DNA from: an uncultured Alphaproteobacteria bacterium
GTDB taxonomy: Bacteria; Pseudomonadota; Alphaproteobacteria; Rs-D84; CACZYB01
Length of the DNA: 32,000 nucleotides
Assembly (NCBI GenBank): GCA_934246625.1
Contig: CAKQHZ010000001.1
Span: forward strand, 570,001-602,000
Direction: 5' to 3'
Shown: in pieces, positions 9,868 to 25,989 of the stretch
Position numbering within the stretch: the first letter of the stretch is position 1
How the letters are laid out: every line of letters starts with the position of its first letter
Notes under the pieces: model-generated
Database searches by the model: none
Told to the model about the DNA's origin: nothing
What the model saw: only the letters and a program-made list of their open reading frames with translations
Position numbers and translations under genes: made by a program

Positions 9868-11211
9868 ATGCAAAGTTGGAAACAAATTCAAGAAACTGTT
9901 CAAAAAAGTATTTGTGCTTCTGCTTACAGCACTTGGATTGCGCCACTTGATTTTGACAAGATTGATCTTGATACATTATATATTGTTTCTCCAACACGTT
10001 TTATTGCCGATTGGGTAAAAAGAAACTTCTTCTCATCAATTTTATCTGCTACTCAATCTGTTATTCCTAATATAAAAGATATTGTTATTTCTGTTGGTGT
10101 TAAAAAAACAGAACCTGTTGCTATTAAGGAAGAAATTGTAAAGTCAGAACAACATATTGCAAGTGTTGAAAATTCTTCTTTGAATGTTAGTGCAAAAGTT
10201 TCACAAAAATTTACATTTGATAATTTTGTAAAGGGTATTTCAAATAATTTGGCTGTGGCAAGTCTTCAAAGAGTTATGAGTGATGATATGGTTAGTTTTA
10301 ATCCTTTGTATATACACTCTCCTTCTGGATTTGGAAAAACTCATTTGCTTCAAGCATTTGTTAATGAAATGGAAAAAGTTAATCCAAGAAAAAGTATTAT
10401 TTATGTGTCTGCAGATAAATTTATGTATTCTTTTATTAAAGCATTAAAGGAAAATGATACATATAGATTTAAGCAAAGTTTTAAATCTGCTGATATTCTT
10501 ATTATTGATGATTTACATTTTATCGTTGGTAAAGAATCAACTGCAAAAGAATTATTTTATATAATTGAAGATTATATTACTAATGGAAAGCAAGTTATTA
10601 TGGCTTCTAATAATTCACCTTTTATGATGGAAGGTTTAAATGATAATTTGAAGTCAAGAATTTCAAGTGGTTTGGTTGTTGATATTAAACCTGCTGACTT
10701 TGCTCTTCGTTCTGAAATTGTAAAGGTAAAAGCAAAGGCTTTGGATTTATGTTTGGCTGATGGTATTGGTGATTTTATTGCAAGTAAGATTACAACATCA
10801 ATTCGTGAAATTGAAGGTGCTTTGAATAGAATTTCTGCTCATACAATTTTGATGAATGAAGTTCCTACACTTTCAAATATAAGAAAAATTTTAGCTGATA
10901 TTTTAGCAGTAAATTCAAAACCTTTATCAATAGAAGATATTAAAAAGGTTGTTGCTGAAAAGTGGGGCGTTTCAGTTAGTGATATTGATTCAGAAAGAAA
11001 GCAAAAAGAAATTGTTATTCCTCGTCAAGTTGCAATGTATATCGCAAAAACTTTGACATCTAAAAGTTTGCCAGAAATTGGTAAAACATTTGGTGGAAGA
11101 GATCATGCAACTGTGATTTATGCAGTTAAAAAAGTTAAGGAATTGATGAGTGTAAATCCAAAGATGGAACTTCTTATCAATGAAGTTGAGAGAGAATGTA
11201 GTGCTTTGTAA
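9868..11211 (+). CDS. dnaA: Chromosomal replication initiator DnaA
   Basis: 447 aa. AAGGAG SD. Walker A SGFGKTHLLQA, Walker B ILIIDDLHF, and C-terminal DNA-binding domain RQVAMYIAKTLTSKSLPEIGKTFGGRDHATVIYAVKKV. Confidence 0.97.
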   Translation: MQSWKQIQETVQKSICASAYSTWIAPLDFDKIDLDTLYIVSPTRFIADWVKRNFFSSILSATQSVIPNIKDIVISVGVKKTEPVAIKEEIVKSEQHIASVENSSLNVSAKVSQKFTFDNFVKGISNNLAVASLQRVMSDDMVSFNPLYIHSPSGFGKTHLLQAFVNEMEKVNPRKSIIYVSADKFMYSFIKALKENDTYRFKQSFKSADILIIDDLHFIVGKESTAKELFYIIEDYITNGKQVIMASNNSPFMMEGLNDNLKSRISSGLVVDIKPADFALRSEIVKVKAKALDLCLADGIGDFIASKITTSIREIEGALNRISAHTILMNEVPTLSNIRKILADILAVNSKPLSIEDIKKVVAEKWGVSVSDIDSERKQKEIVIPRQVAMYIAKTLTSKSLPEIGKTFGGRDHATVIYAVKKVKELMSVNPKMELLINEVERECSAL

Positions 11212-11320: not shown

Positions 11321-13456
11321 TTATCTTTTGTTTTCACATACGGATTGATAATTATCAACGGTTAGAACAGCTTCACCATTATTTAATTTTAGATAATATT
11401 GGGTAAGTCCAGCCATAGGAATATTATAAACACCTGACATATTTGGATAAGTTGATGTTGTTCCGTATGTGCCTACTTCAACATTTTTTCCACTATATTT
11501 TTGACAGTGTGCCTGTAAGAATTGAGCGTGAGACATAGAATTTGATTTTCCATTTTCGGTGAATGTAATAAATCCATCTGTGATTTGTGTAATGGTTAAA
11601 TTATTTGAGTTTGTATTATTTTTTGACTTTGCTGCCTTTGACAAACGTGATGAAAGGTTAATAGCATAAGTTCTTGCTTCGGTTGAATTATTTATACTTA
11701 TGTTGTTTGATTCCTTTTCACAACCGTTCTTTTCAGGAGAGTCGTCCTCACATTGAGCTTTATTTATATAGTTATCAGAGTTAACTAAATCCAATGCAAC
11801 CTTTGCAGATTTTTTGAATTCGTTAAGAACAGTATTATAGTTTTCATCGCGACCTATTGTGTCATCGTTGTATCGAGAAAGGATAGTTAATTGTGATGAC
11901 ATAACATTTTTAATACAGCTTGTATATTGTTCAATATCAAGAGAGTATTGGATACATGAATTTATTACTGCATAGTTTGTTGAAGAATTTGAATAATTGC
12001 CACTTATTGCTGCAATTTCGGTTTCTTCTAATGCACGGTCTGCACTAAGCACAGCTTTTGTTACACGGCGAGTAAGTTCAGCAACTTGTTGACCAACTCC
12101 ACCAACGATTGATGACATAGTTGAACCGCCAAGTAATACAGAAGTGATGTCTGTTGAAGAGGAGCTGTCGAAATCACTACATGAGTAGTCTCCATCAGAA
12201 GAATTTTCGATTATCAAGCCCTTATCATCAAATTTTGTTTCGTTTGATGAAGTTGAAAATGATGACATACCTTTACATCTTGTTTCACATGAAGTGGTAA
12301 GTTCGGACATTTCCGTTTCAATGGTGTTAATAGTTTCACTTAATTTGTTTTGTAATTCGTAAAGGTTGTTAATTTTATCGTCTGAAATTGTTCCAGTTGT
12401 TTCATCATCGGCATTTAATGCTTCAAGTTCACCAATGGAAGTTGAAAGAGTTTCACGACTTTTTGTTAAAGTATTCAGTGCGTTTTTAAGTTCATTTTTG
12501 ACATAGGATTCTTTTGTATCCTTTGTGCATTTAAAGTTTGCGGTTGTTTTATATTTGCTTCCGTTGACAAGAGATTTTGATTTTGCAGAGCTTTCAACAT
12601 TTAAGCCATAAACTTCAACAATTTGTGGTGAAAAGCCAAGAACGGAATTTTTTTGTGTGTCGGTTGTTTTTGTTATTCCCAAAAGGTTATATGCTTTTGA
12701 GGTATAGGTTTTTGCAGTTGTTATATCCTTTTTTACAGCAGATATTATGTTGTTATATTTTACATTTGGTTTATTGTTTCGTGCTTCCTCGGCAGCTTTT
12801 TTTTGACGAGCTATTTCAGCATCTTTGGCTTCTTGTTCCTTTTGATACTTTAGTTCTTCTAATTCTAATTGAGTTTGTTTTTCAATTTCGGCAGCTTTGA
12901 TTTTTGCTTGTTGTTCAGCCTCGGCAGCCTTGGCCTTAGCATTTGCAGCAGCTTCTTCAGCAGCACGTTTTTCAGCTTCGATTTGTGCTTCTTGTTGTTT
13001 TAATTGTTGTTCGTGTGCACGTTCGGCGGCATCGAGTTTTGCTTGTTCTTGATTTGCGAATGATTTTGCAAAACCAGAAATATAGCTTGCACATTGGTAA
13101 GGTAAGAATTGATTTTCAGCCTTTAGACAGCCGAATAATAAGCCTCTGTTTGACATTTCATCAGAGCAAGCACCATCAGTTGCACAGTTTGCATCGTAGC
13201 ATTCGTATATGTAATCTTCACATTTTGAAGTTAAGTTTGATTTATTGCATTTTGCAAGAATAGAAGGGCATTTTGCCGCATTTACAGTAAATGTGAGTGT
13301 TTCAGGAGAAAATGAGTTTAGGCAAGTTAAACATGCGGTTGATATAGTTTTTTTCTTTGTACTTTTGCGTTTTTGTGCAAATGTTTGTATAGAAAATGAT
13401 AGGCAAGTGATTGCCAATGTTAAAATATATAGGTTGTATTTTTTTATATTTTTCAA
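11321..13456 (-). CDS. Secreted 711-aa protein: signal peptide, Cys-rich N-domain, Ala/Glu/Lys/Gln coiled coil, large Ser/Thr/Asn-rich C-terminal region
   Basis: TTG start with GAGGGA SD. Signal peptide MKNIKKYNLYILTLAITCLSFSIQTFAQ. Thirteen Cys lie between about residues 40 and 125. Coiled coil reads ERAHEQQLKQQEAQIEAEKRAAEEAAANAKAKAAEAEQQAKIKAAEIEKQ... No family recognised. Confidence 0.7.
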   Translation of the reverse strand: MKNIKKYNLYILTLAITCLSFSIQTFAQKRKSTKKKTISTACLTCLNSFSPETLTFTVNAAKCPSILAKCNKSNLTSKCEDYIYECYDANCATDGACSDEMSNRGLLFGCLKAENQFLPYQCASYISGFAKSFANQEQAKLDAAERAHEQQLKQQEAQIEAEKRAAEEAAANAKAKAAEAEQQAKIKAAEIEKQTQLELEELKYQKEQEAKDAEIARQKKAAEEARNNKPNVKYNNIISAVKKDITTAKTYTSKAYNLLGITKTTDTQKNSVLGFSPQIVEVYGLNVESSAKSKSLVNGSKYKTTANFKCTKDTKESYVKNELKNALNTLTKSRETLSTSIGELEALNADDETTGTISDDKINNLYELQNKLSETINTIETEMSELTTSCETRCKGMSSFSTSSNETKFDDKGLIIENSSDGDYSCSDFDSSSSTDITSVLLGGSTMSSIVGGVGQQVAELTRRVTKAVLSADRALEETEIAAISGNYSNSSTNYAVINSCIQYSLDIEQYTSCIKNVMSSQLTILSRYNDDTIGRDENYNTVLNEFKKSAKVALDLVNSDNYINKAQCEDDSPEKNGCEKESNNISINNSTEARTYAINLSSRLSKAAKSKNNTNSNNLTITQITDGFITFTENGKSNSMSHAQFLQAHCQKYSGKNVEVGTYGTTSTYPNMSGVYNIPMAGLTQYYLKLNNGEAVLTVDNYQSVCENKR

Positions 13457-13576: not shown

Positions 13577-14017
13577 TTATTTTTTGCTTCCAACAACGAT
13601 TTTAATTTTTGTTTTTGGTGCAGATTTTTTTGTTTCTTCTTTCTTTACCATTGGGATAATTTTTGCAACTGAAACTTTTTTTGCTGGTGCTTTTTTAGCA
13701 ACAGTTTTTTTAACAGCTACTTTTTTTGTTGCAACTTTTTTTACTTCTTCTTTTTTAACAGATGCAGATTTTTTTACAGCAACTTTCTTTGCAGGAGCTT
13801 TTTTAACAACTGCTTTTTTAGCTGGTGTTTTTTTAGTTGCAACTTTTTTAGATGATTTTGTTTTTACAACTTTTGATTCAGATTTTTCTTCTGAATGAGT
13901 TAATTCGTATAATTTTGTTGCTTCGTCCCAGATTGCCAAATCTTGATTTTCAGGACGTCCACGATTTAGCCATATAAAATATGCTGCCTCTTGTATATAA
14001 TCTTTTTTTGATACCAT
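13577..14017 (-). CDS. DUF2934-like domain fused to a histone-H1-like Lys/Ala/Val-rich tail
   Basis: I prefer the start MVSKKDYIQ (ATG 14015-14017, AAGGAGAG SD), giving 146 aa. YIQEAAYFIWLNRGRPENQDLAIWDEA fits the DUF2934 signature. The C-terminal ~90 aa are KKVATKKTPAKKAVVKKAPAKKVAVKK... imperfect repeats. Confidence 0.7.
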   Translation of the reverse strand: MVSKKDYIQEAAYFIWLNRGRPENQDLAIWDEATKLYELTHSEEKSESKVVKTKSSKKVATKKTPAKKAVVKKAPAKKVAVKKSASVKKEEVKKVATKKVAVKKTVAKKAPAKKVSVAKIIPMVKKEETKKSAPKTKIKIVVGSKK

Positions 14018-14131
14018 TTTTATTCTCTCCTTATTTAATTTTGTTTGTATTTTACCACTTACATCGGTCATTATAACATGTGATTTTCAAAAATCTACAG
14101 TTTTTTCAGATTTTTTTAAGTTTTTTATAGC

Positions 14132-14644: not shown

Positions 14645-14720
14645 GCCGTCTTAACTCAGTTGATAGAGTGCTAAATTCGTAATTTAGAAGCCGTGGGTTT
14701 GAATCCCGCAGACGGCACCA
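14645..14720 (+). tRNA. tRNA-Thr (anticodon CGT), CCA encoded
   Basis: 76-nt cloverleaf folded by hand. Acceptor GCCGTCT/AGACGGC, D stem ACTC/GAGT, anticodon stem CTAAA/TTTAG with loop TTCGTAA, T stem GTGGG/CCCGC. Discriminator A73. G1:C72 and C2:G71 match the ThrRS identity set. Confidence 0.9.
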
Positions 14721-16248: not shown

Positions 16249-16363
16249 AATTCCCCCTTTTGTGATTTTGGTTTATTATATATCAAAAGTTTTTTATTTT
16301 CTACATAAAGTTTTACTTCCATTTATTATTTTTTTTTGTATTATATATAAAGAGGAGAGAGAA

Positions 16364-17731
16364 ATGTTATTTGAGGGTAAAAAATTCCTTAAAAAAATTG
16401 ATGGTGCAGCAGTGTTAATGCAAACTTTGTTAGGTTTGGCAATTATGGTTGCTATGACTCCTGTTATATTAAGTCAGATTAAAAAATATAATGAATCTAT
16501 TAACCGCGAAGAAGTTATTTCTCAAATGTCATTACTTCAAAAGGCGGTTACTTCTTATATCTCTTTTGACAGAACTTCTGTGCCAATGGGCTGTGTTGTA
16601 AGAAATGCCAATGGTATAAGGACTATATTAAAAGATTATGGTGGTGAAAAAATTGTATCACCAAATAAGTTCGGGCAAAGTTATAATTTTATTACTTGTA
16701 AGCGTCAAGTGGGTTCTGTAGATGACCCTCAATATGCTATTGATGCAGCAGTGTTTGCTTTTGGTGATGTTGATGATTTAACATTGAATGGAATTGGTGA
16801 ATATTTGTTTGATCAAGGTGTTGTTCTTTCAAATAATGACCATGCTGAACTTACAAATTATAATGCAAAATTATCAGCAACTTTGAAGTCGGAAATTGTT
16901 AAGCAAATTGGAACAAAGGGTGCTTTGGTTATGTTTGTAAGTGATGGTTTTATGGTATCAGATTATCTTTATATAAATAAGGGACCTGGTGGAAGTAATG
17001 CTGTGAATACTATGCTTGCAAATATTGATATGAATAATCATAGTTTGGTTAATGTTTATAATGCAAAGGGAACTGTTTTAAATATTATAAAGGATTTAAA
17101 GGTTGCGGGTCTTGCTGGGAAAAATTTAAGTATTGCAGATTCTGTGTTGGGTGGAGTTTTTTCCATTGAAAATACGGCACCATTTGCAACTGGTGATGTT
17201 ATACAAATTATTACAGACAATATAAATATAAATTCTTTGCAAGTAGAGAATGCTGAATTTTCAAAAATTAGCTTGGACCCAGGTGATTTAAAAACTGAAA
17301 ATTTGGAAACAGATACTTTGACCGTTGAAGGTAATGTTACTGTTGTTGCAGATGGTGAAAATTGGCAATTTGGAGCAAGTAATGTCGAAGCAGATTCTTT
17401 GATGTCAAATGGCACAAAAACAAATGTGTTTAAAAATATTACATTAAAAGATGATGAAACAAGTAGTGAAAAGCAAGAAAGCTATATTTATTATGGAAAG
17501 GTTAATGAATCAGGTGCTTTTGATAATGCAGCTAGTGGTATTTTGAATTTGTCAGGTATGTCGGAAGTAACTGATATTTGTTGGGACGGAGGTGTCGGTG
17601 GTGTTGGTGGTGGTCCATCTTGTTTATCAGATCAAGTTCGTTCAGTTTATAACAGAATACTCCTTGAATGGAGGCATTATGATTGTGTTGCAACTAAAGG
17701 TATTTGGTATAACAATTCATGTAAGTATTAG
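16364..17731 (+). CDS. Giant pilin-like protein A (455 aa), PilV/shufflon-constant-region-like
   Basis: I prefer ATG 16364 (AGAGGAGAGAG SD). The track's 57-aa extension overlaps lemA antisense. N-terminus MLFEGKKFLKKIDGAAVLMQTLLGLAIMVAMTPVIL (basic leader plus hydrophobic helix). Core motif DYLYINKGPGGSNAVNTMLANIDMNNHSLVNV. C-terminal half is rich in N/S/T/V repeats. Four C-terminal Cys. Confidence 0.6.
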   Translation: MLFEGKKFLKKIDGAAVLMQTLLGLAIMVAMTPVILSQIKKYNESINREEVISQMSLLQKAVTSYISFDRTSVPMGCVVRNANGIRTILKDYGGEKIVSPNKFGQSYNFITCKRQVGSVDDPQYAIDAAVFAFGDVDDLTLNGIGEYLFDQGVVLSNNDHAELTNYNAKLSATLKSEIVKQIGTKGALVMFVSDGFMVSDYLYINKGPGGSNAVNTMLANIDMNNHSLVNVYNAKGTVLNIIKDLKVAGLAGKNLSIADSVLGGVFSIENTAPFATGDVIQIITDNININSLQVENAEFSKISLDPGDLKTENLETDTLTVEGNVTVVADGENWQFGASNVEADSLMSNGTKTNVFKNITLKDDETSSEKQESYIYYGKVNESGAFDNAASGILNLSGMSEVTDICWDGGVGGVGGGPSCLSDQVRSVYNRILLEWRHYDCVATKGIWYNNSCKY

Positions 17732-17739
17732 GGATAAAA

Positions 17740-19137
17740 ATGCAAGATAATAAATTTTATAAATATAAGCATATTTTAGGTCTTGGTGTTATTGAAATAA
17801 TACTTGCTGTTGCTGTTATGATGATTATTACTCCTGCAGTTTTAAAGTATTCGTTTAAGGAATTATTTGAAGTTAAATATATAAATGTTGCAAAGCAGTT
17901 GAAAAAAATTGAAAAATCTTTGCTTAACTATGCGTCTATTGAAAAACAAAAATGGGGTAATAATGCAACAGGTCAAATTGTGTCTGGGGTAAGAGAAAAA
18001 TTTGAAACAGATTATGGTTTGGAAACTGATATTGCAAGAGAGCTAACTGATAATTTAAAGGTTAAGTATAAAAAAAATTCTGCGGGTGAAGTTGTTGTTT
18101 ATGGTGTCCTTGATATGTCAGATTTAAATTTTGATGAAATGGCATTTAAACAAACTTTACTTTATGCTGGTGATACCGCTGGGTATAGAGAAGATAATTT
18201 CGCATATTCGATTACTGGGGCTTGGTCTGAAAGTATGTCTGATATTATGCCAAATGCTGTTGGTGATAGGATTGTTGTAATTCGAATCGATGATACAAAT
18301 TTGGAAAATGAGTATTCTTCATCAAATTATTTGTATCGAAACAATCAAGGTGGTGCAGAAGGTAATAGAATGAATGTTGACCTTAAACTTGGTGATAATG
18401 CAGGGTATAGTATAAATAATTTTGGAACGATTGATGCAGCGAATGTGTACTCATCTGCGACTTCGGATTCAAAGGTTAGTGAACTTAGGTTTAATAATGG
18501 AGATATAAAGGGAACTTCACATATCAATAAAAATGCTGTGTTAAAGGGAAAAATTTCATTTCTTTCTGGTGCAAATATAAGGACAAAGTTGTTTGAAATT
18601 GCATATTTAGAAAATGGTTCTTCTTTTGTAACATCTGTGCTTAAGGAATTGATTGTGCCAAATGCGGTGTTAGGAAATTCGTCCTCTGGAATATCAAGTT
18701 CACGTGCAAATATTATTGTGAATGGTCTTGCTATACTTTCAAATTTATCAGTTAAAAATATGCAATTTTCTTTGCTAACTGGATATAATGGGGCAAATAC
18801 TCCACTAACTATTAAACCTTTTAATTTATCAGAATATAGTGATAATAAATCAAAACTTCATTTGGAAATTTCGGCAAATGAAATTGATGATTTATCCGTT
18901 TATACTATGACAGTGAAGAATGGATTTCTTGAAAGTTCAAATCAGGGGCTTTATGTTGCTTCTAATAATGGATTTGTTTGGGTGAAACGTTCTGCAAATG
19001 TTATTATTCAAGATGTTTGTCATAGGGTTGGATATTGTGATACTATGACATTAAAAAATTATAATTTATCTGGGTTTATGAATACTTTTTCGAATAGCCT
19101 TAATGATTTAAGTAGAGAAATAGACAAGTTAAAATAA
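17740..19137 (+). CDS. Giant pilin-like protein B (465 aa), PilV/shufflon-constant-region-like
   Basis: AGGGA SD, 8 nt after gene A. N-terminus MQDNKFYKYKHILG|LGVIEIILAVAVMMIITP has G at -1 and E at +5, i.e. the class III (prepilin) signal pattern. Core motif NYLYRNNQGGAEGNRMNVDLKLGDNAGYSINNFG. C-terminal Cys pair CHRVGYC. Confidence 0.65.
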   Translation: MQDNKFYKYKHILGLGVIEIILAVAVMMIITPAVLKYSFKELFEVKYINVAKQLKKIEKSLLNYASIEKQKWGNNATGQIVSGVREKFETDYGLETDIARELTDNLKVKYKKNSAGEVVVYGVLDMSDLNFDEMAFKQTLLYAGDTAGYREDNFAYSITGAWSESMSDIMPNAVGDRIVVIRIDDTNLENEYSSSNYLYRNNQGGAEGNRMNVDLKLGDNAGYSINNFGTIDAANVYSSATSDSKVSELRFNNGDIKGTSHINKNAVLKGKISFLSGANIRTKLFEIAYLENGSSFVTSVLKELIVPNAVLGNSSSGISSSRANIIVNGLAILSNLSVKNMQFSLLTGYNGANTPLTIKPFNLSEYSDNKSKLHLEISANEIDDLSVYTMTVKNGFLESSNQGLYVASNNGFVWVKRSANVIIQDVCHRVGYCDTMTLKNYNLSGFMNTFSNSLNDLSREIDKLK

Positions 19138-19149
19138 TTGAGGGGAAAA

Positions 19150-20658
19150 ATGCAAAAATATAAAAATGATAGAGCGAATATTTTGTTGGAAGTATTGTTA
19201 ATGCTTGCAATTTTAATTGTTATTTTCCCTATGCTTCAAAAAAATGTGAAGGAACGTTCTGATACTCTTCGTAATCAACTTGTTGTAAAGGATATGATGA
19301 AAATCAAATCTGCAACAGAAAATTATTTGAAAATGCAACCTGATATTCCTGATGGTGTGATGTTGGTGCCATTTACTGAACTTGAAAAAAATGGATTGCC
19401 AAAGAATTTTAAAAATGCTTCTGGGAATCAGGAACGAACAAATATCCTTGGTCAAAATTATCGTGTGAAAGTAAAACGAACAACTGAAAATGATGGAACT
19501 GTTGATTATGATGCAATTATTATTGCTGATGGTAATCCTGATATTTCTGATATGCGAATCCGTGAAATTGTAAAGGAAAGTAAAGGTTTCGGTGGATATT
19601 TGGAAGATGGAATGATTTATGGAACAAGCTGGGCTTTGGATCCAAATGGTTGGGGTGAAGATGATTGGAAAAATACAGATGCTCCATCAAGTTTGCCTAT
19701 TATATTTAAAATTGGTTTTGCAAAAAAGGATTATCAATATATTTCACGAAATGGTATTGGTTCTTCTACTATGATGACAGATTTGTTTATGAATTTGAAT
19801 AACATTGAGCATGTTAATAATTTTGTTATTACAAAGGGTAAAGAGGATAATAAGGACGGAAGTATAGAAGTTAATGATTTGGTGTTGTATGCGTCCGGTC
19901 TTGCTGATATAGGTGTGTTATCTGTTGATGAAATGTTGACGCTTAATTCTTCTATGGATGCAACTAATTCAAAGGCTTCTGTTTCATTGATAAAGGGAAT
20001 TAACCAACCTTCAATGAGGATTTCTGATACGGAAACAAAAAATGTGTCTCTTAGTGATACATTAAGAATAAGTGAAAATTTAACAACATCAAATTCCGAG
20101 TCGAATCATTTAAGTTTTGTTGATATTAAAAATTTGATGGTGAATAGAAGTGTTGATTTAATTGTTGGTGGTTTGATTAAAACTCCTGAGCTTTCAACTA
20201 TTGTTGCACAATTTGGAACAGTTGATTTATCAAGTGTCAATATTGATGCTCTTAATATGCAATATAAATATGCGAATACATCAACTCGTTCACAGGTAGG
20301 ATTTGTTTTTGATAATTTGTATAGTAAGAAAAATAAAAATAAGTATTATATAAAATCAACAACAGATGGAAAAATGAATTTAAGTTTATCTGATGTGATT
20401 GTAAAAAGAGTTAATGATATTTTTACAAAGGATAGCAGCGGTAATACAACTTATGTGCGTGTTGGTGATATTATTATTACTGAAAAAACACCTATATCTG
20501 TTATTTTAAGGGCTTTGAGTTATGAATATGCCGATATTTACCGAATTGTTAAGCCTGGAAGTTATAGTGGTATGATTGACCCTATGCCAGGATTAGAATA
20601 TGATGAATATTTAAGATGTAATTCTCAACAATGTTCAGATAAGACGTGGTCTTTCTAA
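19150..20658 (+). CDS. Giant pilin-like protein C (502 aa), PilV/shufflon-constant-region-like
   Basis: I prefer ATG 19150 (GAGGGG SD) over TTG 19138. N-terminus MQKYKNDRA|NILLEVLLMLAILIVIFPML has E at +5. NYRVKVKRTTENDGTVDYDAIIIADGNPDISDMRIREIVKESKGFGGYLEDG resembles the PilV constant region. Core motif DYQYISRNGIGSSTMMTDLFMNLNNIEHVNNF. C-terminal Cys pair CNSQQC. Confidence 0.65.
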   Translation: MQKYKNDRANILLEVLLMLAILIVIFPMLQKNVKERSDTLRNQLVVKDMMKIKSATENYLKMQPDIPDGVMLVPFTELEKNGLPKNFKNASGNQERTNILGQNYRVKVKRTTENDGTVDYDAIIIADGNPDISDMRIREIVKESKGFGGYLEDGMIYGTSWALDPNGWGEDDWKNTDAPSSLPIIFKIGFAKKDYQYISRNGIGSSTMMTDLFMNLNNIEHVNNFVITKGKEDNKDGSIEVNDLVLYASGLADIGVLSVDEMLTLNSSMDATNSKASVSLIKGINQPSMRISDTETKNVSLSDTLRISENLTTSNSESNHLSFVDIKNLMVNRSVDLIVGGLIKTPELSTIVAQFGTVDLSSVNIDALNMQYKYANTSTRSQVGFVFDNLYSKKNKNKYYIKSTTDGKMNLSLSDVIVKRVNDIFTKDSSGNTTYVRVGDIIITEKTPISVILRALSYEYADIYRIVKPGSYSGMIDPMPGLEYDEYLRCNSQQCSDKTWSF

Positions 20659-23788: not shown

Positions 23789-24517
23789 ATGCAAATGATT
23801 ATAAAATGTCCAAAATGTAAAACTGAATTTGAAATTGATGATGCTCTTGTTGAACATAAAAAAATAAAGTTTCAATGTGCTGAATGTGCCTTTGTTTGGA
23901 GTGTTGGAAATGATGTAGAGGAAGAACCTGTTGCCCCACAAAAAATTGAGGAAGTAGAACCATATAATCCAGAAGTTGAAATTGAAAAAAAGAAACTTCT
24001 TTATGGTTTGGGTGTTGAAGAAAATTCTGTTGAAAAAAAATCAAATTGGTATAGGGAATTATTCTCCCTTAAAAATGTATTGGTATTCTTTTTGGGTTTG
24101 ATTTTATTTCTTATAATCTTTTTTGTATTTAGTCTTGTTTATGAAAGTGTTTATGGAAATAATAATTCTGTACCTGCTCAACAACAAAGTATGTTTGAAA
24201 GAAAAGACGAAAAAATTGATACATCTAAATTGTATATAGAAATTTCAAAACCTTTGACTTTGACACGTGAAGGTGTAAATGACTATATTATTATTCGTGG
24301 ATTTATTTATAATCCAACAAGTGTTAATATGCCTATACCAAAACTTATTATAAAACTTGAAAATAAAGATGAACGTGTGCTTCAAGAACAAGAACGTGAA
24401 ATAGATGTAAAGTCTTTGGCTCCACTTGAAAAAACTGATTTTATGTTTAAGGTTTTCAAATTTTCTGGTCAAGTTCAAAGGGTAAAAGTTGAATTTGATG
24501 ACAGCAGTAAAATTTAA
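23789..24517 (+). CDS. MJ0042-type zinc-ribbon / DUF3426 membrane protein
   Basis: N-terminal zinc ribbon IIKCPKCKTEFEID...KFQCAECAF, a central TM helix, and a C-terminal DUF3426-like beta domain (YIIIRGFIYNPTSVNMPIPKLIIKLENKDERVL). Start is ATG 23789 or 23795. Confidence 0.8.
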   Translation: MQMIIKCPKCKTEFEIDDALVEHKKIKFQCAECAFVWSVGNDVEEEPVAPQKIEEVEPYNPEVEIEKKKLLYGLGVEENSVEKKSNWYRELFSLKNVLVFFLGLILFLIIFFVFSLVYESVYGNNNSVPAQQQSMFERKDEKIDTSKLYIEISKPLTLTREGVNDYIIIRGFIYNPTSVNMPIPKLIIKLENKDERVLQEQEREIDVKSLAPLEKTDFMFKVFKFSGQVQRVKVEFDDSSKI

Positions 24518-24534: not shown

Positions 24535-24996
24535 ATGAAAAAAATATTTTTGATATTGTTTTCTTTGTTAAGTTTTCGTGCAAATGCCTCTTGGGTGAAT
24601 TGGTTTAAATTATCTGATCAACAATATAAAATTTATATTGTATCTGATAATCAATTACAAACGACTGCTGGGTTTTATTTGACAACTTTCCCTTGCTATG
24701 GTGAATATAATCAGGAATATTATAAAACTATTCCTGGGAAAAATATGATAACTCTTTATTGTATGGAACCACCAACAGAAATATATCTTACATATATTGT
24801 AAAACCTCTTGGAAGTTTTTTCCCGTTAAATGAAAAGGCTCAAGGATATATGAAATGTCCTGTGGTTATAACTGATAATGTTGGTGGTGGAATTATTCCT
24901 CGTTTGCAAGTTAATTTACAGGAGTGTGAAAGAAAACAATTAAACTATGGTGCAAATAAAAATATTATTAAAAAGTATGGTGGAGTAGAATTATAA
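24535..24996 (+). CDS. Hypothetical secreted 153-aa protein
   Basis: AAAGGAGG SD. Signal peptide MKKIFLILFSLLSFRANA. Four Cys in the mature part. Its stop abuts the rluD start (TAAATG). Confidence 0.55.
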   Translation: MKKIFLILFSLLSFRANASWVNWFKLSDQQYKIYIVSDNQLQTTAGFYLTTFPCYGEYNQEYYKTIPGKNMITLYCMEPPTEIYLTYIVKPLGSFFPLNEKAQGYMKCPVVITDNVGGGIIPRLQVNLQECERKQLNYGANKNIIKKYGGVEL

Positions 24997-25989
24997 ATGG
25001 ATAAGCAAGTTTTTAACTTTGTTGTGGAAAATGAATTTGATGGTTGGCGAATTGATAAGTGGTTGGCAAAAATGGTGCCAACTGTTTCTCGTGTTAGATT
25101 GCAAAAAATGCTTAAATCCGGATTTGTCCTTGATTCCAATGATGAAGTTGTTGCTGATGTAAGACTTAAAATTTCAGAAGGTGATAGCTTTACAATAACT
25201 ATTGTTCCAGAAGAAAAGTCATTTATTATGAAACCTCAGGATATTCCTTTGGATATTTTATATGAAGATGATGATTTGATTGTTATAAATAAACCTGCTG
25301 GTATGGTTTGTCATCAGGGTGCAGGTCGTGAAGATGGAACTTTGGTTAACGCTTTGTTGTATCATACAAATGGTGTGCTTTCTTCTTTTGGTGCAGAGGC
25401 TGGACGTGCAGGTATTGTGCATAGACTTGATAAGGACACAAGTGGTGCGATGATGGCTTGTAAATCGGATAGGGCTCATATTGAAATGTATAAGCAATTT
25501 GCGAATCACGATGTGAAACGAGAATATTATGCTCTTGTTTGGGGAATTGTTAATCCTGTGGCTGGTGTGATTGATAAAAATATTGGAAGAAATCCTCATA
25601 ACAGGCAAGAAATGCAGGTTATGGTTGATGGTGGTAAAAAGGCAATTACCAATTATGAAACTTTGGAAGTTTTTACTGGTTCAAAATTTAAGCCTGTAAG
25701 TCTTATAAAATGTCAACTTGAAACAGGAAGGACCCATCAAATTCGTGTTCATCTTGCATCTATGGGTAATCCGATTATTGGAGATGCAGTTTATGGTAAT
25801 ATTCCAAAGCAATTAGTGCAAATTGAAAACAAGGAGGTTAAGACTATGCTTGCCTCTGTGAAAAGACAAATGCTTCATAGTAAAAATATAGAGTTTGTTC
25901 ACCCTATAACAAAGGAGTTATTAAAGTTTGAAACAAAGATACCAGATGATATGCAAGCTATACTTGATTTCTTTAGGTATGAAGTTTAA
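24997..25989 (+). CDS. rluD: RluA-family 23S rRNA pseudouridine synthase, RluD-like
   Basis: 330 aa. N-terminal S4 domain (RIDKWLAKMVPTVSRVRLQKMLKSGFV), catalytic HRLDKDTSG, and GRTHQIRVHLA. Confidence 0.88.
   Translation: MDKQVFNFVVENEFDGWRIDKWLAKMVPTVSRVRLQKMLKSGFVLDSNDEVVADVRLKISEGDSFTITIVPEEKSFIMKPQDIPLDILYEDDDLIVINKPAGMVCHQGAGREDGTLVNALLYHTNGVLSSFGAEAGRAGIVHRLDKDTSGAMMACKSDRAHIEMYKQFANHDVKREYYALVWGIVNPVAGVIDKNIGRNPHNRQEMQVMVDGGKKAITNYETLEVFTGSKFKPVSLIKCQLETGRTHQIRVHLASMGNPIIGDAVYGNIPKQLVQIENKEVKTMLASVKRQMLHSKNIEFVHPITKELLKFETKIPDDMQAILDFFRYEV

Follow-up and report, generated by a model that had tools for sequence, protein, structure and literature searches.

What do three adjacent genes for large, pilin-like proteins do on the chromosome of an uncultured alphaproteobacterium, between core genes and outside any pilus operon? 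The genes, here called A, B and C, lie in a stretch of 32,000 nucleotides (nt) from an uncultured Alphaproteobacteria bacterium (contig CAKQHZ010000001.1 of assembly GCA_934246625.1, positions 570,001 to 602,000), which we call the window and whose positions are used below unless another locus is named. A previous, sequence-only reading had pointed to a resemblance to PilV, the plasmid-borne adhesin whose variable end is exchanged by DNA inversion, and had proposed that the trio hard-wires three alternative C-termini. We favour, with a probability of roughly 0.55, a different answer, namely that A, B and C are a shufflon-free, triplicated set of PilV-like minor pilins that would form one heteromeric tip or priming complex with A as its cap. 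The genes are arranged as follows.

16249..16363, plus strand: intergenic stretch from the divergent lemA-like gene to gene A, presumed to be the promoter region of the operon, with the strong Shine-Dalgarno (SD)-like AAGAGGAGAGAGAA just 5' of the ATG
16364-17731, plus strand: gene A, 455 residues, PilV-like and pilin-like
17740-19137, plus strand: gene B, 465 residues, PilV-like and pilin-like
19150-20658, plus strand: gene C, 502 residues, PilV-like and pilin-like

The listing of open reading frames (ORFs) and inspection of the upstream sequences confirmed this layout of three co-oriented genes, with a gap of 8 nt between A and B, a gap of 12 nt between B and C, and an SD-like element before each start (AAGAGGAGAGAGAA for A, TAGGGA for B and GAGGGG for C). 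The tight spacing together with one SD per gene suggests that A, B and C are co-expressed. The neighbouring lemA-like gene diverges from A, the stop codon of C abuts that of a convergent plsC-type acyltransferase gene, and a promoter-like match at 16300-16329 was no better than chance.

The suggested resemblance to PilV and to the Pfam family Shufflon_N held up in profile alignments, in plasmid searches and in scans of orthologues. As reference we used the 457-residue PilV of IncI2 plasmids from the pMCR-1 locus, which has the canonical pilN-O-P-Q-R-S-T-U-V genes and an integrase gene after pilV, and compared it by hhalign with family profiles built from database homologues (n=13 for A, n=14 for B and n=21 for C). 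The profile of C aligned at 98.3% (E 2.2e-14, 206 columns) and is the closest of the trio, followed by A at 96.5% (E 9e-10) and B at 80.5% (E 1.3e-5), the aligned part extending from the signal peptide as far as ...LYRYS..NRMHTAIDMNSNNLNNVG, corresponding to PilV residues ~2-218/240. A phmmer search with IncI2 PilV also recovered protein C of the window (E 1.2e-9). When the C orthologue P0043 was searched by tblastn against 72,556 plasmids, 508 of them matched, 503 being predicted conjugative; the matches cover residues 10-258 at E ~1e-4, and among the matches listed the annotated feature is PilV.

Pfam gave a divided result. The A, B and C proteins of the window had no match to Shufflon_N even at E<=1, and thus stay below the Pfam threshold, and no significant match in Pfam or NCBIfam at all, with weak ComGE/ComGG matches on the hydrophobic helix only. 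When every family member was scanned, Shufflon_N (PF04917, a profile of 324 positions with a gathering score of 27.5 bits) was the top family, with 12 of 48 members at E<=0.1, namely 5 of 21 for C (best 6.4e-10), 6 of 14 for B (1.8e-5) and 1 of 13 for A (5.9e-4). The C orthologues P0042, P0048 and P0043 lie above the gathering score (39.5, 35.2 and 33.2 bits) and B orthologues below it (24.5-24.8 bits), so that the Pfam scan proposed by the sequence-only reading failed for the proteins of the window and succeeded for orthologues of C. These matches span positions ~54-232 of the 324, or up to 289 in one protein, and fall short of the whole domain. The part that is shared is centred on the following segments.

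16961..17056, plus strand: core motif of A common to the trio, DYLYINKGPGGSNAVNTMLANIDMNNHSLVNV, residues 200-231
18325..18426, plus strand: core motif of B common to the trio, NYLYRNNQGGAEGNRMNVDLKLGDNAGYSINNFG, residues 196-229
19585..19611, plus strand: segment GFGGYLEDG of C, residues 146-154, with G146, G149 and Y150 invariant
19729..19824, plus strand: core motif of C common to the trio, DYQYISRNGIGSSTMMTDLFMNLNNIEHVNNF, residues 194-225

In the alignments DYLYINKGPGGSNAVNTMLANIDMNNHSLVNV of A pairs with ...DRLYRYS..NRMHTAIDMNSNNLNNVG of PilV, GFGGYLEDG of C aligns with GLGGYINSS of IncI2 PilV, and YLYRN.QGG..G..M.V within the motif of B is invariant in its 14 orthologues. The motif had been thought to mark the end of the PilV constant region, which proved incorrect: it lies at ~residues 195-218 of IncI2 PilV, where the Pfam domain comprises residues 33-345, and the constant segment of TP114 PilV and the Pfam domain extend to PilV residue 345. 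The shared part is limited to the first ~60% of the constant domain of PilV. By homology of this core, A, B and C belong to the PilV (Shufflon_N) lineage.

PilV of IncI1/IncI2 plasmids (R64, TP114 and the pMCR-1 type) is annotated as the tip adhesin, a minor pilin, of the type IVb thin pilus. The likeness comprises a class III signal with Glu+5 (in B and C), a ~200-residue N-terminal domain with ..A..NY.., G.GGY and LY(R)....N.M...(I)DM..N.L.NVG, an overall size of 430-500 residues, and a divergent C-terminal part presumed to bind receptors. In contrast to PilV, the trio lies on the chromosome and belongs to the core genome of its uncultured gut alphaproteobacterial hosts, and where pilV is a single gene with invertible 3' segments, it comprises three paralogous genes that are fixed. 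It is accompanied neither by rci or sfx repeats nor by the pilN-pilU machinery, and has one paralogue without Glu5. The size of the proteins, which the sequence-only reading could not map to a described system, has parallels in the size of CofB and the relative size of GspK. It is also matched by the 457 residues of IncI2 PilV and by a TcpB construct of residues 25-423 (PMC5207764).

The same cores relate the three proteins to one another. By sequence comparison, A, B and C are paralogues, well above chance, and this paralogy is common to their first ~220-300 residues: the A and C profiles align at 98.5% (E 2.6e-15, 268 columns; BLASTP 7e-11 over ~330 residues), those of B and C at 96.9% (E 1.8e-10, 244 columns; BLASTP 2e-4) and those of A and B at 96.1% (E 3.1e-9, 264 columns; BLASTP 1e-4). 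Identity of the N-terminal cores between families is only ~15-20%, and an alignment of 48 sequences from the three families shows P27, Y195 and M208 (numbered as in C) to be invariant. None of the hhalign alignments of the three family pairs reaches the last ~170-200 residues, in agreement with the unrelated C-terminal halves described at first. These family-specific halves of ~200-270 residues are each conserved among their own orthologues, and those of B and C are moderately Ser/Asn-rich. The short-repeat character ascribed to them was not recovered by self-BLAST and Tandem Repeats Finder, with which a 9-nt x2.9 array in A was the only internal repeat detected. Within the species of the window, variable sites lie mostly past residue 250 (29 of 34 in A, 18 of 26 in B and 31 of 34 in C), and the C-terminal halves are also less conserved across orthologues, which fits exposed, receptor-facing domains. 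The xxxY end of the N-terminal helix, the shared DY/NY-x-Y...M motif and the C-terminal Cys pairs were all found as first described, the last at these places in A and C.

17579..17623, plus strand: Cys406-Cys420 loop of A, CWDGGVGGVGGGPSC, both Cys invariant in the A family
20488..20634, plus strand: C-terminal helix of C, TPISVILRALSYEYADIYRIV (residues 447-467), followed by an RC....C pair, with C490 and C495 invariant in the C family

The conserved Cys pairs of A and C suggest an oxidising, extracytoplasmic location; the pair of B is kept only partly. T447, P448, S450, R454, Y458 and Y460 are invariant in the helix TPISVILRALSYEYADIYRIV of C. The 9-nt repeat of A (CGGTGGTGT x2.9, 17587-17612) codes for the Gly-rich Cys406-Cys420 loop, the length of which differs among within-species alleles, always in frame (GGVG, GGVGGV, GGVGGVF and versions with extra glycines).

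At their N-termini all three proteins carry a class III prepilin signal, with the caveats that the -1 residue is Ala in A and C and that A lacks Glu5. A short basic leader is followed in each by a single hydrophobic helix, with the sequences (the slash separating -1 from +1) ...KIDGA/AVLMQ in A, where the leader is residues 1-15 with Ala at -1 (A15) and Gln at +5 (Q20), ...KHILG/LGVIE in B, where Gly-1 (G14) and Glu+5 (E19) are invariant, and ...KNDRA/NILLE in C, with Ala at -1 (A9) and an invariant Glu+5 (E14). Leader, helix, the Glu of B and C and the Gln of A are as the sequence-only reading had them, and there is one strongly hydrophobic 19-residue window per protein, N-terminal in each, with none past residue 60. 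In A the segment is the following.

16406..16471, plus strand: alpha1-N hydrophobic segment of A, residues 15-36, the sole hydrophobic segment of the protein

This pattern is kept with few exceptions across 42 complete trios: gene 2 has Gly-1/Glu+5 in all 42 and gene 3 has Glu+5 in all 42, and gene 1 has Gln+5 in 39 and Glu+5 in the other 3. The -1 residue is Gly in all trios except in the species of the window, where the Ala of A and C (codons at 16406-16408 and 19174-19176) may point to processing that is relaxed or altered. When 1.84 billion cluster representatives were searched with a profile, 349 relatives were found at E<=1e-3, the N-termini of which nearly all read G/xxxxE followed by a hydrophobic stretch and include an R64-like ...RGWASLDVG.... 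When a superfamily profile of these distant relatives was compared with the N-termini of solved type IV pilins, it matched geopilin PilA-N (E 6e-4 and 9e-4) and, marginally, GspG. A sequence search of PDB with the three family profiles found no relatives, CofB and TcpB included. A match of the superfamily profile to PDB 9cuy_g, a phage 'putative tail fiber protein' (E 1e-4), is compositionally biased and made of several overlapping stretches, and was not counted as evidence. It falls on profile positions 217-373, just past the PilV-like core of distant family members, and hints that their post-core segment may be a tail-fibre-like repetitive beta structure.

AlphaFold2 models of A and C have a ~55-residue N-terminal helix followed by a sheet of 5-6 strands with a predicted local distance difference test (pLDDT) score of ~90; in A the helix comprises residues 13-68 and, with the strands, scores ~90 over residues 20-190. 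On these models a pilin fold is plausible for A and C. The C-terminal halves are mostly modelled as low-confidence beta strands, with the exception of residues 350-470 of C (~70-88), and the model of C has a helix at 449-467 (pLDDT 66-85).

Is the trio an idiosyncrasy of one genome? The 42 trios, all non-identical and from gut or metagenome alphaproteobacterial lineages of metagenome-assembled genomes (MAGs), always have the order A-B-C, and every complete locus has a 1:1:1 copy number with no gain, loss or swapping, so that the comparison of relatives proposed by the earlier reading revealed no variation in gene number. An ENA scaffold from a gut metagenome matches the window, and a 715-kb contig of the same species comes from a sample with the label Hadza. 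Among GTDB species representatives, 14 have orthologous trios; all 14 are MAGs, which are labelled Alphaproteobacteria, 'Rickettsiales' or 'bacterium' and whose isolate names include RUG13061, Water_deer_Rectum, Mgla_MAG and Im510_bin77; one scan of Joint Genome Institute (JGI) metagenome contigs added 45 loci. Synteny in the clade of the window is constant (lemA-like / A-B-C / plsC-DUF218-FtsX-ABC, the last for ATP-binding cassette), and in more distant lineages the trio persists with changed flanks. Family members with a source name are all annotated as 'hypothetical protein' and most escape Pfam, and our search of the literature on chromosomal Shufflon_N proteins and on the clade labels RF32 and CAG-239 found nothing relevant. 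An AT-rich uncultured alphaproteobacterial lineage is supported as the host, as had been supposed. As far as these sequences go, the module is conserved and not peculiar to one genome, and A, B and C are ancient, non-interchangeable paralogues.

We looked for filament machinery in ~52 kb around the trio (the window and ~10 kb on either side) and in the ±10 kb around the trio in ~70 related loci. The ~10-kb extensions hold housekeeping genes only, and neither window nor extended flanks contain small ORFs with a class III signal. In a sister lineage, 24 loci (among L030-L070) have a PilS-like small pilin ~2 kb upstream of the trio on the opposite strand, of ~147-152 residues, with the leader M.EESG/RSLIE and a C-terminal Cys pair, beside OmpA- and OmpH-family genes. 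By hidden Markov model it matches IncI2 PilS (E 1.4e-8) and Pfam PilS (E 5.6e-4). Examples from JGI and other metagenome contigs are as follows.

L030:4636-5079, minus strand: PilS-like pilin
L065:3340-3858: PilS-like pilin
L055:4914-5393: PilS-like pilin

With this pilin close by, the trio is tied to a filament-type system. In these loci, too, the neighbouring genes include none for assembly, and none of the fetched loci of the window clade has a counterpart of the pilin. The window and its flanks contain no rci, other recombinase or integrase gene, and the locus thus does not qualify as a shufflon. Sfx-like inverted repeats are likewise missing, as the search gave only AT-rich matches of 70-94% complementarity, at chance level and without a repeated family. 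Nor did the ±10 kb around the trio in the other fetched loci contain rci or sfx-like repeats. The trio is shufflon-free. The sequence-only reading had similarly reported neither recombinase, inverted repeats nor pilus machinery in the window, and no strong inverted repeat was detected there.

How, then, might the three proteins act? We propose that a prepilin peptidase would cleave A, B and C, after which contacts between their alpha1 helices could hold them together in a staggered heteromeric complex. This complex would prime and cap a type IV filament, the machinery and major pilin of which would be encoded elsewhere in the genome. Gene 1 (A), lacking Glu5, would supply the first, topmost subunit, B and C, with Glu5, would dock beneath it, and the tip of the filament would carry the three different C-terminal domains as one composite adhesin. 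When a subunit docks, its Glu5 neutralises the N-terminal amine of the one before it, and in the minor-pilin sets of the type II secretion system (T2SS), the type IVa (T4a) pilus and the bundle-forming pilus (BFP) a single member has no Glu5; this member has been proposed as the first subunit, at the tip (PMC5207764). As in GspK-type sets, exactly one member of the trio lacks Glu5 (39/42), and a fixed set of three, one paralogue of which has no Glu5, is best explained as a heteromeric complex that forms the tip or primes the filament. The fixed order and 1:1:1 copy number, the family-specific C-termini and the difference at position 5 together argue for subunits that act together and not for alternatives.

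Two kinds of known tip resemble such a complex. In type IVb (T4b) pili one large minor pilin, CofB or TcpB, forms the tip as a trimer (PMC7248040). CofB of the CFA/III pilus of enterotoxigenic Escherichia coli (ETEC) and TcpB of the toxin-coregulated pilus (TCP) of V. cholerae are, like A, B and C, large, with an N-terminal pilin domain and beta-rich C-terminal domains, and they initiate assembly and sit at the tip (PMC7248040, PMC5207764). They are encoded by single genes within the pilus operon and form homotrimers, whereas the trio, unlike these initiators, lies outside a pilus operon and three different genes would fill the three positions. The GspI-GspJ-GspK set of the T2SS and the PilV/W/X-type sets of T4a pili share with the trio that they are distinct, co-encoded minor pilins of which exactly one lacks Glu5, and they are proposed to be the first filament subunits (PMC5207764, PMC7248040). 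In contrast to those sets, with which no sequence relationship is detectable, the members of the trio are all large (455-502 residues) and mutual paralogues, and the one that lacks Glu5 has Gln there, not a hydrophobic residue.

Several points weigh against this proposal. The ~52 kb around the trio hold no ATPase, platform, prepilin peptidase, secretin or major pilin, and machinery was not found within ±10 kb of the trio in any of the ~70 related loci. Foldseek searches with both AlphaFold2 models against PDB, and with that of C against BFVD, gave no significant match, so that the pilin fold is plausible, not demonstrated. In the species of the window A and C have Ala at -1 instead of Gly, and Ala at this position is usually a poorer substrate for prepilin peptidase. 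The Glu5-less A is encoded first and is the smallest, unlike GspK-type subunits, which are the largest of their set and encoded last (PMC5207764). Finally, that A, B and C form a heteromer at all is something we infer.

In one alternative the proteins would act independently of a pilus, the filament machinery having been lost or never present, with A, B and C anchored in the inner membrane by an uncleaved or signal-anchor helix. They would then serve in the periplasm or the envelope and might, for instance, build a heteromeric structure that spans the envelope or lies at the surface. The lack of machinery or a major pilin within ~52 kb, and of machinery in the ~70 loci, the window clade without a PilS-like pilin, the Ala in place of Gly at -1 in two of three proteins, and the conserved neighbourhood of envelope genes (lemA-like, plsC, DUF218, FtsX/ABC and MlaE/ABC) all speak for this explanation. 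We nevertheless consider it unlikely. Genes 2 and 3 keep Gly-1 and Glu+5 in 42 of 42 trios, the species of the window being exempt at the -1 position of C as noted, through divergence to ~30% identity and beyond, and the invariant Glu+5 is unlike a plain membrane anchor, in which an invariant charged residue is not expected. The pattern of one member without Glu5 is specific to filament tip sets (PMC5207764), and the sister lineage links a PilS-like pilin to the trio. Because type IVa pilus genes are commonly scattered in genomes (PMC7248040), the distance to machinery is weak evidence of its absence. A stronger form of the idea, that the clade has no type IV filament machinery anywhere and the trio is a self-sufficient membrane-anchored heterotrimer, a 'tip complex without a pilus', seems quite unlikely to us; if true, it would be a core-genome module of gut-associated alphaproteobacteria, whose genomes are small and AT-rich, and might help them to attach to host or prey cells.

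The proposal from which we started, that each protein caps a pilus alone and that three hard-wired receptor specificities take the place of inversion by a shufflon, appears rather improbable. It draws on the homologous cores with unrelated C-terminal halves, on polymorphism concentrated in the C-terminal parts, and on shufflon PilV variants, which confer different recipient specificities (PMC9045228). However, none of the 42 trios departs from the others in gene number, order or orthology, the N-terminal cores are strongly diverged (~15-20% identity between families), and tight spacing with individual SDs suggests co-expression. Moreover, Glu5 is missing from gene 1 only, which points to distinct structural positions and not to equivalence; given the fixed order, the 1:1:1 ratio and this difference at position 5, the hard-wired alternative C-termini are not supported.

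Very improbable, lastly, is a trio of minor pseudopilins of a T2SS-like or competence-type system confined to the envelope, as the single Glu5-less member, shared with GspH-I-J-K (PMC5207764), and the weak N-terminal ComGE/ComGG matches (E 0.01-0.1) are set against homology to the type IVb adhesive/conjugative PilV and not to Gsp or Com minor pilins, the insignificance of those Pfam/NCBIfam matches and their restriction to the hydrophobic helix, polymorphic C-terminal domains of ~200-270 residues with Cys pairs that better fit surface exposure, and a linked small pilin that is PilS-like.

Of the neighbouring genes, a Zn_ribbon_4 protein of 242 residues with a ZitP-like N-terminus (23789-24517, plus strand), a 153-residue protein without Pfam match (24535-24996, plus strand) and an RluD-like pseudouridine synthase (24997-25989, plus strand) follow one another in the window, and in a distant lineage the same Zn-ribbon/153-residue/RluD-like genes come directly after the trio on the same strand (L030:11782-13750), the Zn-ribbon protein there having a weak DUF3426 match (E 0.04). 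In alphaproteobacteria zitP-like genes sit beside ftsEX, and because this adjacency may be ancestral synteny we treat the ZitP link as no more than a lead. The ZitP-like gene by the trio may reflect a functional link or old synteny; ZitP of Caulobacter is needed for pilus biogenesis (PMC5182063).

On the minus strand, 11321-13456 is a 711-residue ORF without a Pfam family, which in relatives stands beside a bactofilin gene (738 residues in L006), and 13577-14071 is a 164-residue ORF (146 residues in the public gene call) with a DUF2934 match (2.9e-10) and a sub-threshold, histone-H1-like HC2 match (2.4e-6, 28.2 against a cutoff of 40 bits), the product of which looks like a lysine-rich nucleoid-type protein by sequence. 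The window also contains dnaA (9868-11211, plus strand) and shows no origin switch defined by skew, GC skew being positive over all 32 kb and cumulative skew rising monotonically. Its only RNA gene by Rfam and tRNA scans is tRNA-Thr (CGT) at 14645-14720 (plus strand). Some ~3-10 kb past the right end of the window, on the 715-kb contig of the same species, lies a run of large genes without Pfam match (567, 757, 407 and at least 490 residues; L026:13848-20984, minus strand), broken by ruvA; a phmmer search with IncI2 pilus machinery proteins gave no match to them.

Adhesins of the PilV type have been described on conjugative plasmids and genomic islands and owe their diversity there to DNA inversion. 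Here the same protein lineage is fixed on the chromosome as a module of three genes in a whole group of uncultured alphaproteobacteria of the gut, the hosts of which include humans (Hadza samples), rumen, deer and termites as well as those of mouse-type MAGs. If the trio forms one complex, it would link the homotrimeric tips of type IVb pili (CofB, TcpB) with the heteromeric tips of the type IVa/T2SS kind (GspI-J-K) and would illustrate how heteromeric tips can arise by duplication. For bacteria of obscure lifestyle, the trio represents a concrete candidate adhesin.

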